Below are positions 30,416-61,696 of a stretch of 64,000 bases of DNA, piece after piece. A program made the translations under genes and the position numbers. The DNA lies in IMG/VR virus record IMGVR_UViG_3300045988_091011, positions 50,138 to 114,137 of that record; one strand, written 5' to 3'. This DNA is from a virus. How positions within the stretch are numbered: the first letter of the stretch is position 1; every line of letters begins with the position of its first letter. The notes below the pieces were generated by a model. The model did not search any database, had not been told where the DNA came from, and saw only the letters and a program-made list of their open reading frames with translations.

Positions 30416-31435
30416 TCATCGCTTTATCTTTTTAGACGGATCCCAATCCGAAGAGAAAGGGCATTCGTTTTTGTTATGTAATCCAAAGTCACAATAATAA
30501 CACAGTGCCGACGGGCAGGGTAGCTTGTTTTGCGGAACAGGCTGGCTTAGAGTGGCACGCCGCTTGCTATACCTGGCTCCTTCTACTCCCTGGATGTATG
30601 CCTGAAATGTTTTTACACTATTATCTTCAAAATCATACATTTTGGATAAAGTGTTATTTAGCATCTCTATAGATTTTGTTTTACGATCTTCATCTACTTT
30701 AACCTTTTGGTACTGCCTGGTCCTGGTAAAGAAATAGATGTTCATATCTGGTAGAACTCCACCATATTTTCTATAGATGTAAAATGAATATATAGGATGC
30801 TGTAAATTTGTCTCCAGTTTCTTAGAATCAAAAACCTTATTCCCTGATTTCCAATCTATGACATAATGGTGAACTACGTTCTTGCTCTTTATAGCCAGAT
30901 GAAGGTCTACCGATCCTACTATGTACACATGAGTATGAATTACTCCATTTATGTTAACAGGCTTAGGAAGACGGTACGGCAGCACAAAATCTTCTTCGAC
31001 TCCAACTATAGCGCCGTGTCTGATAAGTTTCTCGCAGGGATTAAGATCACTATCAGCTATCATAAACCTATTGCCGTCTTTTTTGAACAGATCCACAATC
31101 CAAGCAAGAAGCTCCCCAGATTGCTTCATGGCTATCATCATATTTTCCGGTGATTGCCAAGGTATGTCTTCTTGGTAAGCATAGTAACTTATAGCTTCCC
31201 CCAGGTCTTTGCCAGAAGGCTGTCTTCCGTTCTTAAAGAAGTATTCCAGTGTCTTATGGATAACCGTACCATAAGACGTAGCTTCTTGTTTTTCCGTAGA
31301 CCTTTTGCCCTCCACGTAAGTCTTATACCATTTCATTGGACAAGTAAGAAACGTATCTATCTGGGAATAAGATATGGCAAGACGTTTCACGCCATTAAAC
31401 TCCTTATATAGCAAATGCGTTTCCGGGACCATCAT
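30416..31435 (-). CDS. Cas4/RecB-like PD-(D/E)XK exonuclease with a C-terminal Cys cluster.
   Basis: YSQIDTFLTCP N-terminal motif, VGSVDLHL, VIDWKSG (the D/E-x-K motif), and a four-Cys cluster CPSALCYYC...NECPF. Confidence 0.7.
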   Translation of the reverse strand: MMVPETHLLYKEFNGVKRLAISYSQIDTFLTCPMKWYKTYVEGKRSTEKQEATSYGTVIHKTLEYFFKNGRQPSGKDLGEAISYYAYQEDIPWQSPENMMIAMKQSGELLAWIVDLFKKDGNRFMIADSDLNPCEKLIRHGAIVGVEEDFVLPYRLPKPVNINGVIHTHVYIVGSVDLHLAIKSKNVVHHYVIDWKSGNKVFDSKKLETNLQHPIYSFYIYRKYGGVLPDMNIYFFTRTRQYQKVKVDEDRKTKSIEMLNNTLSKMYDFEDNSVKTFQAYIQGVEGARYSKRRATLSQPVPQNKLPCPSALCYYCDFGLHNKNECPFSSDWDPSKKIKR

Positions 31436-31779
31436 AAGTCATTGTCTTTAAATCCTTCCGGGTAATATACGACATACTTCTTACCGTCTTCTGGTGTCAT
31501 GGCAAACTGCATGTAGTTATTACGATTACGATGTTTACCATCCAATCCTCGTTTCCAATACAGTATCCCGTCTATATCCACATAAGATCGGCCCCGTTCG
31601 GCTCTAACTACGTCCGTGTGTAGCAGATACCCGTCGGAAGACACGATCCATACTTTATCACCTTTGTTTAAATAAGATATTCTTTTTCTTACAACAACCT
31701 TTTTCTTATTATCCAATACAAATTCCTCGTCAGTCATACTCTTCATCCTCCTCTTCTTCTGTTTCAAAATCAATTCCAT
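31432..31779 (-). CDS. Hypothetical protein, 115 aa.
   Basis: Co-oriented ORF with ATGA overlap to the nuclease gene. Confidence 0.5.
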   Translation of the reverse strand: MELILKQKKRRMKSMTDEEFVLDNKKKVVVRKRISYLNKGDKVWIVSSDGYLLHTDVVRAERGRSYVDIDGILYWKRGLDGKHRNRNNYMQFAMTPEDGKKYVVYYPEGFKDNDL

Positions 31780-31902
31780 ATCCCATATTCTATTAAATAT
31801 ATTTAAAGCTATTCGTATGTTTTAATACATCCCCTCGGAGACCTTTCGGTCTCCTTGGTAGATGTAAATCCCGTTAGGGATAAGTCAGGATTTCTCCTGT
31901 AA

Positions 31903-32090
31903 GTACCCATCGCCAATGTTATTTGAGGTTTTGAATAAGCAACACTGTTCCTGAATACCAGAACTGTTTAATCACTTACCTTAGAGCTACAGACTTGGGC
32001 AAACATCCGTAGGTAACTATCTATTCTTAAATAACGTAGCCTTTGTTTCAAGGCTTAGGCTAATAACCCGATCTCTTAAAGAGATGTATT
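31903..32090 (-). ncRNA. Partner-less second copy of the IscB-associated omegaRNA-like scaffold (about 164-nt conserved core plus a divergent terminal hairpin).
   Basis: About 93% identical to 43678-43843. The stem AGCCTT/AAGGCT here is replaced by AGTGTT/AACACT in the other copy, a compensatory change. Lies in a 520-bp non-coding gap. Strand inferred from iscB orientation. Confidence 0.35.
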
Positions 32091-32302
32091 AAACTTTTAT
32101 AATAGAATTATATTGGTTTAATACTATTTGGGGTTATAACACTGATCATAATGATTGGTCAGTTCTTCTGGTTCTAAATCTTGTCCAAAATCCATGTTAA
32201 AAATATCGTAATTAGTAAAGCACTGTTCCTGCCGGCAGGAAATCTATGAATGCTGCTTTTGCTTCTTCAATTAGGCCCAAGTGTAACCTTGGGCCATTGT
32301 AT

Positions 32303-39900: not shown

Positions 39901-41229
39901 TTATATCATGAATCTTTTAGACATTTCCTCTGCAATATCATATACAACCGTATGATCTTCTTCATTGTACGGCTTATTGATATTCAACACTCCTTTTCTC
40001 ACTTTAAACTTCTTATCTTTTCTAAGGTGATTCAACATACCTTGTTGGAACACACAGTCCGCCTTTTCAAGTGCTACACTGTCTTCTGTCCATTCTTTCA
40101 GCGTATATCCTTTACTGCTCGTGCTTTTTGGAGAAAAGTTCATAATACGTGCATCAATGCCATACCATGCTTTAACCATTCTTCTTTCAGCTTCCAATTG
40201 GAATGCATATGATTCCCATATTCCTCCCGATTTAAAGTCAAGAATGACCACTTCTTCTTTTTCCACTTCTCTTACTTCCTTCTTCGGATCACCTTTTTTG
40301 AACTGTCCGGTAGCCCTTTGATACACGGCTCCAAAATAACCTTCTTCTTTGTATTTGAATGTCATTTTAACCATCGCATCAATAGGTGTTGCTACAAGGT
40401 AATCCTCTAAAGAAAGGATTCTTTCTATCATCATCGGTTTCACCTTGTAATCAGAACAGAATTTGGCAAACTTCATGACCCTGACAATCATATCGTCAAG
40501 ATCATCTATGCTATTAAAGAACCGATCAAGATTTTTCTTAGATATCTTCAGCTTGCCTTCTTGCACTGTCTTAACCACAAAGCTTCGATTTAAGACCATA
40601 TCTCTACCTGTTAGGTACAATCCGTATAAGTAGTGCATGATCGTTCCCTTATCGGCTTCATACTGCGCTACCTCTTCTGGATTGCGACCAAGCATCTTTA
40701 TCTCTTGCTTCCATTCCTGAAGTGCTGTCTTATCATCTACATACCCATCTTTGATTAAAGTTGTTACCGAAGCATATATCTTAGCCGTCCCATCATCCAT
40801 CTTTCTTACATAAAAACGATTATCGTCTAATGTCAATCTTACGAATTTGGGGGTCTCAATCTTCTTTAACTCATCACAGATATAAAACGGCTCTAATGTT
40901 TCCTGATTTTCTGTAAACGGATTCGAATCTTCTTCTCCAGGGTTAGGAGCGGCTTCCTCTGCCGGAGCTTCCGGTTCTTCTCCCTGGGCCTGCTCTGGCT
41001 CAGGCGCCGGCTCTTCAACTACTGGAACCTGTCCGCCTCTTTCTGCTATGTCTTTGTTTTTTATTAAAGACATAACTTCCTTTCTCAATTGCTCCGGTGT
41101 TTGATTAGGATCTGACACCGACATCACAACATCGTTCATTCTAAACAACGTATTTTCTACTCCTTCCACCATAGGGACAAACCCTAAATCTGTTAATATT
41201 TTAATCTTTTCTTCTATCATACCTGTCAA
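39901..41229 (-). CDS. Hypothetical protein, 442 aa, with an acidic Pro/Glu-rich linker. Possible PD-(D/E)XK motif (PIDAMV ... VVILDFKSG).
   Basis: ORF. The motif resemblance is weak. Confidence 0.55.
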   Translation of the reverse strand: MTGMIEEKIKILTDLGFVPMVEGVENTLFRMNDVVMSVSDPNQTPEQLRKEVMSLIKNKDIAERGGQVPVVEEPAPEPEQAQGEEPEAPAEEAAPNPGEEDSNPFTENQETLEPFYICDELKKIETPKFVRLTLDDNRFYVRKMDDGTAKIYASVTTLIKDGYVDDKTALQEWKQEIKMLGRNPEEVAQYEADKGTIMHYLYGLYLTGRDMVLNRSFVVKTVQEGKLKISKKNLDRFFNSIDDLDDMIVRVMKFAKFCSDYKVKPMMIERILSLEDYLVATPIDAMVKMTFKYKEEGYFGAVYQRATGQFKKGDPKKEVREVEKEEVVILDFKSGGIWESYAFQLEAERRMVKAWYGIDARIMNFSPKSTSSKGYTLKEWTEDSVALEKADCVFQQGMLNHLRKDKKFKVRKGVLNINKPYNEEDHTVVYDIAEEMSKRFMI

Positions 41230-41728
41230 TTATTTCAATAATCAACCTACCTCTTTCTTTGATCATTCCCCTGCTTTCCATATCCAGTACCTTCTTTACC
41301 GCATACTTCCACACAAAAGGAAATTCTGTTTCAAGTTTATCAAATTCCATCCGGTCAAGATACATGTCGAATACCGTATGCTCCGATTCATGTAGAAAAA
41401 CTATATTATCTCTGCAAGTGGCAACCGACTTATATATCCTTTTTGGAAGTATGTGACATACGTTACATACTGTAGGAAAATGAATAGCCCTACCAGTCAT
41501 AGACATCCGAATACTATTCAGCTCTTCCAGCATAAGACGAAAAAACCCGGATAAATCCGGGTTCTCTAACTTTTTCTTCTTGCTGCTGTTTTTAATGGAT
41601 GTAATTCTGTTTTTTTTCTTCGGAGTCAACTCTTTGCTCCTGCAAGCCTGGCATAAGCCATGACTTCTTATCATCACTTTTCGTCCGCATCGTTCGCAGA
41701 CGTATAGCTTCTTTTCCTTGCTTTCCAT
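41201..41728 (-). CDS. Zinc-ribbon protein with a possible compact HNH-like motif.
   Basis: CERCGRK...CQAC at the N-terminus. CNVCHILPKR...CRDN...LHESEH resembles H-N-H spacing. Confidence 0.4.
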   Translation of the reverse strand: MESKEKKLYVCERCGRKVMIRSHGLCQACRSKELTPKKKNRITSIKNSSKKKKLENPDLSGFFRLMLEELNSIRMSMTGRAIHFPTVCNVCHILPKRIYKSVATCRDNIVFLHESEHTVFDMYLDRMEFDKLETEFPFVWKYAVKKVLDMESRGMIKERGRLIIEIIDRYDRRKD

Positions 41729-42373: not shown

Positions 42374-42396
42374 GTCTATATTTTTATTCAAATTAA

Positions 42397-43623
42397 TCAA
42401 TCCATTTCCTTTTGTACCATAAAGCGTTTACACCTTGATAATTTCAATTTCTTGTATGTAATATCTCTTTGGTTTTTACCATCAATATCTCGAATATTAA
42501 AACTACCGGTTTTACGCCTTGCGAATATAAAATAATAACTGTTTTCAAACATAACCCTATCAAACAATCGGAAACCAAAAACTTCAAAAGGAGATTGATT
42601 TGGTCTTTTTATCCCTCCTTTTGGAATCTTTTGTTTATGGATCTGACGATTATGTCTTCTTACTAATCTTACTTTATAATAATATCCTAACCTTATAGCA
42701 TCAAAGTTTTTAGAAATAACAAATGCATCGAAAACATGAGATTTTTCAATACCATGTTTAATCCTATTGTATTTTGTAACATAACCGAAAGTCATAGAAA
42801 CTCTGTTGTATTTAGACCTTAGTTCTTCATACAATCTCCATTTCATTATTCCCATTACGGCTGCGTCGCGAAGCGACGATCCCCGTTTGATCTTTAAATC
42901 TATATTACCTTTATGGTATTCTTTATGACAAGTTTCACATAAGGTAATAAGATTAGATGGGGAATCTCCACCTGTCTTTCGTGATTCAATATGATGAACA
43001 TTCAATACTGGGTCTTTTGACTTTCCCTTACAATGCTGGCATTTATGTCCATCTCTTGCTAAAACATATTCCCTAACGTTCCAAAATCCAAGTTGATCAC
43101 CCTCCTGATATTCTTTACCTGATATATTAGGATTGTTAATCTTTTGAGTATCAAATTGAGCTACTTCGATAACAATACGAGATATTGGTAATATAGAACA
43201 TACATTGTCAATAACACGAATATGGGCGTCTACTTTGTATTTCACCGAAGGTGCTACCCATCCCGGACGCTTACTTTTTATTCTATTATCAAAACGAGGT
43301 TTTCTATATCTCAATCTATTTCGTCTTGTTTTCCGTAGCTCCCTTCTGGTAGACAAAAGATCTACGATATCATTTCTAAGAATAACTTCACTGCTGTAAA
43401 GTTCTTTGCTTTTCGTCGTTGCTGATAGACCAACGTGTTTAGTTCCAGCATCAACGCCTAACACAATTTCTTGTTTGTAATCAGATGTTACGTACGTTAA
43501 TTTGATGGTAAACGGACATAGGTTTACAACGACTGCCTTTTTGTCTTTAAGCAATCGCCTAACCTTTCCATGCCTTGTTGTAGGCATCAAAGGTTTACCA
43601 TTTATGTCTTGTACGTACACCAT
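42397..43623 (-). CDS. iscB: IscB OMEGA nuclease (PLMP, split RuvC and HNH domains), 408 aa, catalytic motifs intact.
   Basis: PLMP motif GKPLMPTTRHGKVRRLL. RuvC-I VLGVDAGTKHVGLS. Arg-rich bridge helix RRELRKTRRNRLRYRKPRF. RuvC-II IVIEVAQFD. HNH CQHCKGK...NVHHIESRKTGGDSPSNLITLCETCH. RuvC-III HVFDAFVISKNF. Confidence 0.85.
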   Translation of the reverse strand: MVYVQDINGKPLMPTTRHGKVRRLLKDKKAVVVNLCPFTIKLTYVTSDYKQEIVLGVDAGTKHVGLSATTKSKELYSSEVILRNDIVDLLSTRRELRKTRRNRLRYRKPRFDNRIKSKRPGWVAPSVKYKVDAHIRVIDNVCSILPISRIVIEVAQFDTQKINNPNISGKEYQEGDQLGFWNVREYVLARDGHKCQHCKGKSKDPVLNVHHIESRKTGGDSPSNLITLCETCHKEYHKGNIDLKIKRGSSLRDAAVMGIMKWRLYEELRSKYNRVSMTFGYVTKYNRIKHGIEKSHVFDAFVISKNFDAIRLGYYYKVRLVRRHNRQIHKQKIPKGGIKRPNQSPFEVFGFRLFDRVMFENSYYFIFARRKTGSFNIRDIDGKNQRDITYKKLKLSRCKRFMVQKEMD

Positions 43624-43639
43624 ATCTACAAACGTTTTT

Positions 43640-43880
43640 AATGTTTATTCAACATAAGTCAGAGTGAAACTCTGTTAGTACCCATCGCCAATGTTATTTA
43701 AGGTTTTTTTTGTAAGCAACACTGTTCCTGAATACCAGAACTGTTTAATCACTTACCTTAGAGCTACGAACTTGGGCAAACATCCGTAGGTAACTATCTA
43801 TTCTTAAATAACGTAGTGTTTGTTTCAACACTTAGGCTAATAATCGGAATAGCTTTTGGCTATTATGCATAATACAATAC
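43640..43880 (-). ncRNA. Candidate omegaRNA (HEARO-like) scaffold of the IscB.
   Basis: Located 5' of iscB on the same strand. Its 166-nt core 43678-43843 is conserved at a second locus, with compensatory stem changes. Multiple hairpins. Confidence 0.45.
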
Positions 43881-44081
43881 AAATTGTTTATGATTTGTAT
43901 GGGTTATGCATTATTCTCGATTATTTACTATCGTAGCCACGAAATACTTACACCCCTCTAAGTGCGTCAGGGCTTCAATCATAGCATTCTTTATCTCTTT
44001 TTCTTCCATTCTGTTTGTTTTTTGGACAAAGATATGTCTTTTGATAATAAAAAAGATTCAAAATGATTTAATTTAGCTTAA

Positions 44082-49606: not shown

Positions 49607-50268
49607 CCTCCAGTAGTGTACAAAGATACATCTTCCTCCTCTACGTTTACACCTTTAATAGCCTGTAGAAGTTTTTTCTTTGTCTCCCGGCACATATTGT
49701 AACCATATCCTTTATACCGATATGAGCGCTCCCATGTGCTTACTGGAAAAGGAATATTTTCATCAATGACCAGCCTCTTCATATGAAGATGTTCAAAGAA
49801 TTTCTCATGGTAGAGTAGTTTGTACTCGTATGCTACTATACTTGCAGATGAGAATGGAAAATAATCATCTTCCTCTTCTTCGTATTTAGGCTCCTTGTAG
49901 TAAGCCATTTTTGCCACAGTAAAGTCGAAGCTCCTGAGAATCTCTTCAGGCTTTCCGAACTCTGACTCTATGAACTCTACCCATACCTTTTCTCCCTCTT
50001 TCTGGAATGCGCATACCTTCTCATTCCTGTACTTAAATTTCCATCCTTCTTTCTGATGTTTTTTATCATTGAACAAATCAACAGCTTCCTGAAAATCGTC
50101 TTCGCTTTCAAAGAAAATATCAATATCTTTTACTCTTTCTCCGGAAAGGATATTCTTAAAACATCCACCAGCTATGAACCCCTTGTGACCTTCCATATAT
50201 TTGTCAAGCCATCTTATTTGCCAGAAATTATCTGGAGTATCTATTATAAAATTGTTCATATCATTCAT
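49597..50268 (-). CDS. Pol-beta-superfamily nucleotidyltransferase-like protein, 223 aa.
   Basis: GGCFKNILSGERVKDIDIFF fits the hG[GS]x9-13DhD pattern. A downstream acidic FDFT follows. Confidence 0.5.
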   Translation of the reverse strand: MNDMNNFIIDTPDNFWQIRWLDKYMEGHKGFIAGGCFKNILSGERVKDIDIFFESEDDFQEAVDLFNDKKHQKEGWKFKYRNEKVCAFQKEGEKVWVEFIESEFGKPEEILRSFDFTVAKMAYYKEPKYEEEEDDYFPFSSASIVAYEYKLLYHEKFFEHLHMKRLVIDENIPFPVSTWERSYRYKGYGYNMCRETKKKLLQAIKGVNVEEEDVSLYTTGGWD

Positions 50269-61361: not shown

Positions 61362-61696
61362 ATTATTATTGTTTTATGTTATTTAATGGTAATACTGATC
61401 CCATTTATGTGTCAGATGATAATTAAACATTATATTTGCCCTGTCTTGCGACCTCGGAAGGGCATTTCCGAGTTGGAAAGTACGGGTGATTCCAACGATT
61501 GTAAAACCGGGGGTTCCGTACGTTTGTATCCAAGAATCCCGTTTGCTTTAGCGATGGGAGTATGTCAAGCATTATACAAATACAAAGAGCGCATACCTTC
61601 ACAGGCCGGCGCTCCTTTCAATAAAAATGAAAAAACTAATATTATATAAACATATTGTTTTCTACTCTTTATTACAATACTTTTGTTCCGCAATTA

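Follow-up and report, generated by a model that had tools for sequence, protein, structure and literature searches.

The sequence analyzed here is a stretch of 64,000 nucleotides of viral DNA (positions 50,138 to 114,137 of the IMG/VR record IMGVR_UViG_3300045988_091011; hereafter the window), which contains two copies of an IscB-type omegaRNA scaffold. The first, copy A, lies in a 358-bp mini-element without open reading frames (ORFs) at 31780-32137, inserted at a sharply defined point when compared with related phages. The second, copy B, belongs to a full IscB element (omegaRNA plus iscB) at 42374-43924, situated 10 kb from copy A in the same genome and likely its partner in trans. All features of both loci are encoded on the minus strand. 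Downstream of the copy A scaffold follow a 119-nt tail, a 115-aa ORF without Pfam match (31432-31779) and a PD-(D/E)XK nuclease, and the upstream genes, a flotillin operon, are co-oriented with copy A. The first-pass annotation of this DNA, made from the letters alone, had already recorded these downstream neighbors and the missing iscB; unlike at a canonical HEARO locus, there is indeed no co-oriented iscB after copy A, whereas copy B has one. Within the mini-element the longest stop-free stretch amounts to 52 aa, and no ORF of at least 40 aa is listed.

When the whole window was scanned against Rfam, exactly two matches above the threshold were obtained, both to HEARO (RF02033, gathering score 83), the family of IscB omegaRNAs. 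Copy A matches at 31899-32137 with 111.0 bits over model positions 1-211, i.e. the full model, and copy B at 43674-43866 with 113.1 bits; the full-length matches have E-values of about 1e-22. The covariance model therefore establishes copy A as a member of the HEARO family over the full model. Two omegaRNA-like copies with cores about 93% identical had been proposed before, and this was borne out: over the core as delimited at that time 154 of 166 positions are identical (92.8%), and a local alignment of 32066->31880 with 43843->43654 gave 172 identities in 192 positions. The extent of copy A had been drawn too short, with the core ending at 32066 and the finding at 32095, while the scaffold runs on to 32137.

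According to folding, the 5' domain of scaffold A (32063-32137) consists of the helix P1, formed by AUAACCC (32131-32137) and GGGUUAU (32063-32069), and of two hairpins inside it, A (32086-32124) and B (AUCUCU-UUA-AGAGAU, 32071-32085). The unrelated hairpins ATCTC..GAGAT of copy A and AATAGC..GCTATT of copy B, previously placed outside the core, do exist, however, they represent the second internal hairpin of the scaffold 5' domain and hence do not lie outside the scaffold. Further downstream, a helix of the HEARO consensus reads AGCCU-UGAAACAA-AGGCU in copy A (32038-32055) and AGUGU-UGAAACAA-ACACU in copy B (43815-43832). The two adjacent compensatory pairs in this stem (C-G to U-A and C-G to G-C) with the common loop UGAAACAA had been noticed in the first reading and are real. 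In the next helix, G-U and G-C are swapped at two positions between GUCUG (A) and GUUCG (B), which is neutral for the structure, and the hairpin directly 3' of the Rfam model, CAGGA-GAAA-UCCUG in copy A versus CAGAG-UUUCA-CUCUG in copy B, shows two further compensatory pairs. Beyond the match to RF02033, the fold of the orphan scaffold, i.e. a scaffold without adjacent iscB, is supported by 52 orphan sequences as described below.

Filled and empty alleles at the locus of copy A

The closest deposited phage, and the only close one, is crAssE-Sib (OR575929, 151 kb), an epsilon crAss-like phage from the human gut, which contains neither the mini-element nor the full IscB element; the publication on this phage names two TnpB 'transposases' only, without any mention of IscB. 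Its empty site reads CAAAATCAATTCCAT/AACACTGATC (the slash marks the junction here and below; the longer right flank is AACACTGATCATAATG), and the window has 358 extra bases exactly at this position. The junctions in the window, TTCCAT/element/AACACTG, have an ambiguity of 3 nt and show no target duplication. The upstream edge of the element, between 32137 and 32138, coincides with the first scaffold base (AUAACCC..., 32137); hence, the guide would be read from the flank outside of the element. If a guide length of 16 nt is assumed by analogy with characterized IscBs, the putative guide A is 5'-CAUUAUGAUCAGUGUU-3' (32138-32153), and the corresponding guide B is 5'-GUGGCUACGAUAGUAA-3' (43925-43940). 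The segments 32090-32110 and 43870-43900, which had been taken for the guides, are both part of the scaffold.

The empty site of crAssE-Sib carries the 16-mer of guide A, directly followed by ATGGAA, and the same arrangement is present in most of the 55 empty contigs mentioned below, in one case with a single mismatch. The predicted natural target of guide A is the uninserted allele of related phages, CATTATGATCAGTGTT plus ATGGAA. In the window the flank ATGGAA (31774-31779), which resembles a target-adjacent motif (TAM) or transposase target, follows the element and supplies the ATG with which the 115-aa ORF starts. No other target of guide A or guide B with up to two mismatches was found in the window, where guide A matches its own flank only. 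The flank also contains an 8-bp inverted repeat, ACTGATCA-TAATGAT-TGGTCAGT (32141-32163), which overlaps guide A and is carried by the empty alleles as well; the guide could thereby be partly sequestered in the RNA.

To score the state of the site, 80 viral contigs were collected via the 115-aa ORF. The site is empty in 55 of them, and 16 contain a clean insertion of 357-369 bp with the same ends. In three of the contigs the upstream flank of the element differs, and five contigs end inside the element. A full IscB element was not found at this site in any of the 80 loci. The comparison with related phages suggested by the first-pass annotation thus revealed a polymorphic element, and the interpretation of copy A as the relic left end of a lost element, which had been offered as one option, is not supported, given the absence of the full element from these loci and the occurrence of the same ORF-less element at nine or more other sites. 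Taken together, both observations indicate that copy A arrived as a mini-element. On a neighbor-joining tree of the downstream 2.9 kb, presence and absence require at least 12 changes, compared to 13-19 with random labels, which means that the insertion state is almost unlinked to its surroundings. IMG/VR contigs often end in the mini-element (L006, L007, L043, L051, L079, L165, L205), indicating that assembly of these phages from metagenomes is interrupted by the repeat.

The 3' flanks at about 20 distinct sites of IscB and orphan elements begin with ATG(G/A/T), with ACG as the one exception. These flanks fit the target N/ATGA described for ISC transposons (PMC4810608). In IscB elements the scaffold represents the transposon end, the guide is taken from the outside flank and transcription comes from upstream, and the TAM of the nuclease equals the TnpA target (10.1101/2023.03.14.532601); the ATG(N) flanks also fit this latter rule.

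A separate observation concerns nested deletions of the guide-encoding flank, in which one endpoint is always the first base of the omegaRNA scaffold while the 3' junction is unchanged. They correspond to window positions 43925-44000 at the IscB locus (L087-L091, L096, L098, L099) and 32138-32230 at locus A (L188, L175/L041, L057), and they remove 6 to about 76 nt or entire neighboring genes such as flotillin. A new guide results from each of these deletions. They may be due to leaky self-cleavage (ATAA at the scaffold start versus ATGN as the target motif), to recombination between scaffold copies or to adjacent deletion of the transposase type.

The orphan family and the resident IscB element

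In place of iscB, the mini-element carries an orphan-specific tail (31780-31899) with three hairpins, hp1 (CAGGA-GAAA-UCCUG, 31886-31899), hp2 (AUCCC-UAAC-GGGAU, 31868-31881) and the long hp3 (31827-31865), followed by an AT-rich end (31780-31826). The GGAGACC-GAAA-GGTCTCC hairpin reported 3' of the core in the earlier reading forms the core of hp3 and was located at 31837-31854. A pattern derived from the tail matches 57 stretches of viral contigs. Mini-elements with identical ends, ATAACCCC...GGGAT, occur at at least nine distinct other sites, each with a different upstream flank and hence with a different guide, and some contigs hold two copies. At all sites but one, the insertion lies directly before an ATG; at the window loci A and B, the next gene begins with this ATG. 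The window itself contains the empty copy of another orphan site (approximately 41215-41240, minus strand), since TTGAAATAATTGACAGGT/ATGATAGAAG corresponds to the upstream flank, i.e. the guide, of the mini-elements L200, L213 and L219.

Scaffold cores were also sampled without reference to the tail. The 114 matches listed comprise 84 IscB-linked copies, 27 orphans and 3 copies at contig ends; orphans therefore account for about a quarter of the scaffold copies in this list. Three tail families could be distinguished among the orphans, which differ in sequence and, when each family was folded separately, display one and the same three-hairpin architecture, whereas IscB-linked copies retain hp1 only. 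RNAalifold applied to a MAFFT alignment of the pooled tails detected almost no covariation, which is explained by misalignment of the divergent tail families.

The scaffold itself was analyzed on 52 distinct, mutually related orphan sequences, onto whose alignment the family structure, taken from one of them, was projected. Standard pairs occupy 90.2% of the cells, compared to 33-47% when partners were slid, and changes on both sides were found in 28 of the 79 pairs. The covariation score is 0.158 versus 0.078 after shuffling (none of 500 shuffled sets reached the observed value) and 0.02-0.04 with partners slid by 1-3 columns. Orphans with core identities down to 76% keep the fold with many double changes. 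The HEARO scores of orphans at other sites amount to 87-107 bits, compared to 100-104 bits for linked copies in the same loci. The orphan set is better evidence for structural integrity than the stem differences between copies A and B.

The resident IscB element comprises scaffold B (43674-43924) and an intact iscB gene of 408 aa (42397-43623). The Rfam match covers 43674-43866 of the scaffold, and its P1, AUAAUCG paired with CGAUUAU, starts at 43924. The protein shows Pfam matches to RRXRR (204 bits) and HNH, aligns with the solved IscB structures 7utn and 7xht (E = 1e-43 to 1e-45) and holds the RuvC D/E/H..D and HNH motifs in this alignment. The 5' edge, /ATAATCG, is the exact point up to which the flanks of B-type elements differ between insertion sites. 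The 3' edge, ...TATAGAC/ATGAATCG, was derived from site comparison with an accuracy of about +/-6 nt and lies just before the start codon of a DUF4494 gene. Two other boundaries were considered and rejected: a scaffold start at 43907, where AUAACCC is present as in copy A, was ruled out by the flank divergence in favor of 43924, and a 3' end between 42407 and 42408, inside the last iscB codons, was ruled out by the multi-site comparison in favor of 42374. An origin of copy A by internal deletion of the window's own IscB element was likewise rejected, because its tail shares only CTGACTTAT and no remnant of iscB was found inside the mini-element. The 5' domain, the core and the last approximately 35 nt of copy A resemble another IscB subfamily, represented by L135.

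The IscB-linked omegaRNA of L135 is nearly identical to copy A in the 5' domain and core, including the stem variant. Its P1 shows the compensatory changes AUAUCCG paired with CGGAUAU, i.e. the same architecture as in the 5' domain of copy A, and the L135 subfamily of IscB is about 83% identical to the window IscB. IscBs of 93.6% identity carry either A-type or B-type omegaRNAs; the L160 IscB with this degree of identity has the B-type. Both stem variants occur on IscB-linked omegaRNAs, and the same C-terminal type of IscB is found with either of them (10 versus 8 loci). Among the 52 orphans, the two stem pairs are C-G (38) or U-A (14) and C-G (38) or G-C (14), respectively. Because both variants are linked to IscB, the differences between copies A and B were inherited from two functional scaffold lineages and did not arise in place. 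The compensatory pairs between A and B alone therefore say nothing about selection on the orphan copy A, and the claim that they are a signature of such selection does not hold. That closely related IscBs naturally pair with either scaffold type is the one basis here on which the resident IscB may be expected to use scaffold A.

Proposed use of the orphan RNA in trans and competing explanations

Copy A has no gene in the element, an effector locus is present in the same genome, and the element was mobilized as a unit. We are confident that it represents a mobilized stand-alone omegaRNA element. With some more reservation we also regard it as probable that 31780-32137 derives from an IscB element (ISC or IS200-IS605-type) and is non-autonomous and protein-less, i.e. 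a stand-alone omegaRNA for which IscB is used in trans. That copy A is expressed and used by IscB in trans we consider slightly more likely than not. A trans-acting guide is the best supported among the options put forward in the first-pass annotation, however, the idea that it retargets the IscB is misleading, since the guide is the flank of the insertion.

The proposed mechanism would begin with read-through from the co-oriented flotillin operon, which would yield an RNA composed of the guide CAUUAUGAUCAGUGUU and the scaffold. Next, this RNA would be loaded in trans by the IscB encoded at 42397-43623, and the complex might then cut copies of the locus without the insertion, either in a co-infecting relative or in a genome from which the element has been excised. 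Recombinational repair from the filled allele would copy the mini-element in, resulting in homing or retention. Moves to new NCAT/ or /ATGN sites would need a Y1 TnpA, which is encoded by some relatives and not by the window. It might even be speculated that omegaRNA-only elements serve as extra guides for one IscB, which cut co-infecting rivals without the insertion and thereby drive the elements and their flanks through crAss-like populations, although we consider this extension rather unlikely. If true, it would represent a natural multi-guide system of RNA-directed homing and competition and a step towards a guide array; the three-hairpin module of the orphans would be an adaptation to life without iscB, in 3' end formation or transposase recognition, and the nested deletions beside the 5' ends of the scaffolds would have been left behind by leaky self-cleavage, through which new guides continually arise.

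Several findings weigh against a function in trans. In the long outer helix of copy A one pair is mismatched (A.C), in contrast to A-U in the closest relatives, and the 5' domain of copy A shows no sequence relationship to the 5' domain of the omegaRNA that accompanies the resident IscB. Decayed copies exist: of the 80 contigs, one (L039) has an internally deleted copy of 203 bp, in another (L057) a deletion takes most of the element plus the flotillin gene, and this 203-bp copy as well as one orphan of tail family 2 score below the Rfam threshold. Many filled alleles (L012, L033, L037, L042, L047, L059, L060 and others) carry GATCGGTGTT in the guide flank at a position where all 55 empty alleles have GATCAGTGTT or GATCAGTATT. 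The resulting guide variant, GAUCGGUGUU, matches none of the 55 empty sites exactly; relative to each empty site in the sample, it has a mismatch at a distance of 7 nt from the target motif. A scan for sigma-70 promoters found promoter-like sites no more often than expected by chance, so that the RNA would depend on read-through.

These points could be accommodated if the element were an inert hitch-hiker, a dead or tolerated derivative spread by recombination or a transposase, whose omegaRNA is not made or not used and which has remained intact through its youth and gene conversion by IscB-linked copies. The alignment of the orphans shows that helices have been shuffled as modules between orphan and linked copies, thus, recombination with IscB-linked copies rather than selection on orphans could keep the orphan structure intact. 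Nevertheless, this explanation appears possible but unlikely to us, because the fold is kept with many double changes even in the most divergent orphans, one tail architecture is shared by three families of different sequence, and orphans make up so large a share of the copies listed over at least nine sites. Trans use of stand-alone omegaRNAs has, moreover, been shown experimentally in another system, as far as the account in PMC10691335 goes. At least 19 of the 53 orphan-bearing contigs appear among the best 80 of 306 IscB matches and two further ones carry an IscB-linked scaffold among the matches listed, which argues against inertness.

Alternatively, the element could be mobilized purely by TnpA like a palindrome-associated transposable element (PATE), a known class (PMC4810608). 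A Y1 transposase would recognize the end hairpins as single-stranded DNA, with the omegaRNA being a mere transposon end and the tail hairpin a transposase site. The precise insertion next to NCAT without target duplication is in line with this view, as are the hairpins near both ends of the mini-element, which at the same time belong to the RNA fold or the tail. Furthermore, a 132-aa Y1 TnpA is encoded in 17 related contigs within a 1650-bp IS605-like element, next to a divergent ORF that looks TnpB-like by eye only. In some relatives (L364, L367, L370) this element is inserted after TTCTGTCAT/ (GTCAT/), equivalent to the position between 37921 and 37922 of the window, where the window is uninterrupted (TCA/TGTAAAC); GTCAT/ belongs to the same NCAT/ target class as the IscB and orphan elements. 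Purely TnpA-driven mobility is nonetheless improbable. A Y1 TnpA was not found in the window, also when the TnpA from relatives served as the query, and the ends of the IS605-like TnpA/TnpB element do not resemble those of IscB or orphan elements. Binding of a transposase also leaves the conservation and covariation of the whole 240-nt fold unexplained, including helices far from the ends. Mobilization by TnpA would in any case complement use of the RNA in trans more than exclude it.

Co-option of the tail, with its stable hairpin and AT-rich end, as the 5' untranslated region of the 115-aa gene, where it would be maintained to control expression, is very improbable. The abutting ATG start codons, which at all sites but one receive their upstream context from the tail, and the conserved tail architecture fit such a co-opted leader, however, the downstream genes vary by site, the 55 of 80 relatives with an empty site do well without any insertion, and the placement before ATG is explained by target or TAM specificity together with selection against insertions inside genes. 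Finally, a conserved promoter or leader repeat, or chance similarity, without RNA structure, the scenario named at the outset as a possible refutation, can practically be dismissed, because nothing was found in its favor and the full-length Rfam matches, the covariation and the insertion polymorphism contradict it.

Relation to known systems and minor observations

Stand-alone omegaRNAs have been described for Ktedonobacter racemifer (Altae-Tran et al. 2021, Science, as summarized in PMC10691335); the same summary reports that they work in trans with compatible effectors and calls their biological role unknown. Like these RNAs, copy A has no adjacent effector or transposase gene, has evidently been mobilized and takes its guide from the flank. 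In both cases the same genome holds an effector locus with a compatible scaffold, the compatibility being suggested here by the natural mosaics. In contrast to the K. racemifer case, copy A resides in a lytic-type gut phage of roughly 150 kb (epsilon crAss-like group) and not in a bacterium, the allele is polymorphic across the natural phage population with matching empty sites, and a conserved module of three hairpins takes the place of iscB in the orphans; the activity in trans is here a prediction. With the canonical IscB-omegaRNA system (OgeuIscB, 7utn, 7xht), copy A shares the RNA family, the helices and pseudoknot, a guide 5' of the scaffold and a TAM-like motif 3' of the target. The resident IscB differs from OgeuIscB in its length of 408 aa versus about 496 aa, and the match stops before the C-terminal region.

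PATEs are ORF-less derivatives of IS200/IS605 elements, some of which encode omegaRNAs that need TnpB in trans (10.1101/2023.03.14.532601; PMC4810608). The mini-element resembles them as a short, protein-less element with precise insertion at a short target, no duplication, hairpins near the ends and proteins provided in trans. It differs by its IscB-type (HEARO) RNA at the end facing the incoming transcription, and a cognate TnpA was not found in the window. The predicted super-Mendelian spread between co-infecting phages by cleavage of the insertion-less allele is reminiscent of the free-standing homing endonucleases of T-even phages and of 'intronless homing' (reviewed in PMC13565253). In contrast to the T-even systems, recognition of the target would here be achieved by RNA, and the mobile unit is the guide only, with the nuclease encoded at another locus of the genome. 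Phage- and plasmid-borne CRISPR mini-arrays and solitary repeat units also rely on an effector encoded elsewhere. They are likewise guide-only modules, however, the mini-element has no repeats or spacers and its guide is fixed by the insertion site.

Stand-alone, trans-acting omegaRNAs have thus already been published, and copy A is a well-documented new example in a phage. It goes beyond the published descriptions in its phage setting, in the polymorphism of filled and empty alleles with matching targets, in the share of orphans of about a quarter among the matches listed, in the three-hairpin module and in the near-invariable placement before start codons. While it will not surprise specialists, it represents a clear and useful natural example. 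Hundreds of genomes of this phage lineage are nearly identical and either contain the mini-element at an exact site or lack it there, which makes the lineage a natural test bed. The visible targets in empty alleles, the nuclease encoded elsewhere and the orphan share make the homing model for guide-only elements directly testable. In addition, the locus provides a compact IscB of 408 aa with two natural scaffold types and a short putative ATG(N) TAM. For genome annotation it is relevant that the mini-elements break assemblies, sit directly before start codons and are associated with deletions of neighboring genes.

In a collection of species-representative bacterial genomes, only two close relatives were detected, and the other matches are mostly unrelated HEARO RNAs or chance similarities. 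A 20-kb contig assigned to Vibrio olivae CECT 8064 (L339) encodes an IscB of 79% identity plus scaffold, and a metagenome-assembled genome of Phocaeicola faecipullorum (L341) an IscB of 70% identity plus scaffold. The Vibrio contig appears out of place for an element of gut phages and may represent contamination. In the collections searched, the family is essentially phage-borne.

On the minus strand of the window, a 115-nt stretch at 61454-61568 is 84% identical to the left end of the IS605-like element (TTGACATACTCCCA..GGGATTCTTGGATAC). A TnpB-looking ORF of at least 150 aa was not found beside it, and the stretch could represent a solo end, a PATE or a gene that is broken under genetic code 11. 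Finally, some orphan insertions lie beside phage tRNA clusters of 4-5 tRNAs (L209, 3014-3374; L199, 3609-3970; L322, 6839-7890).

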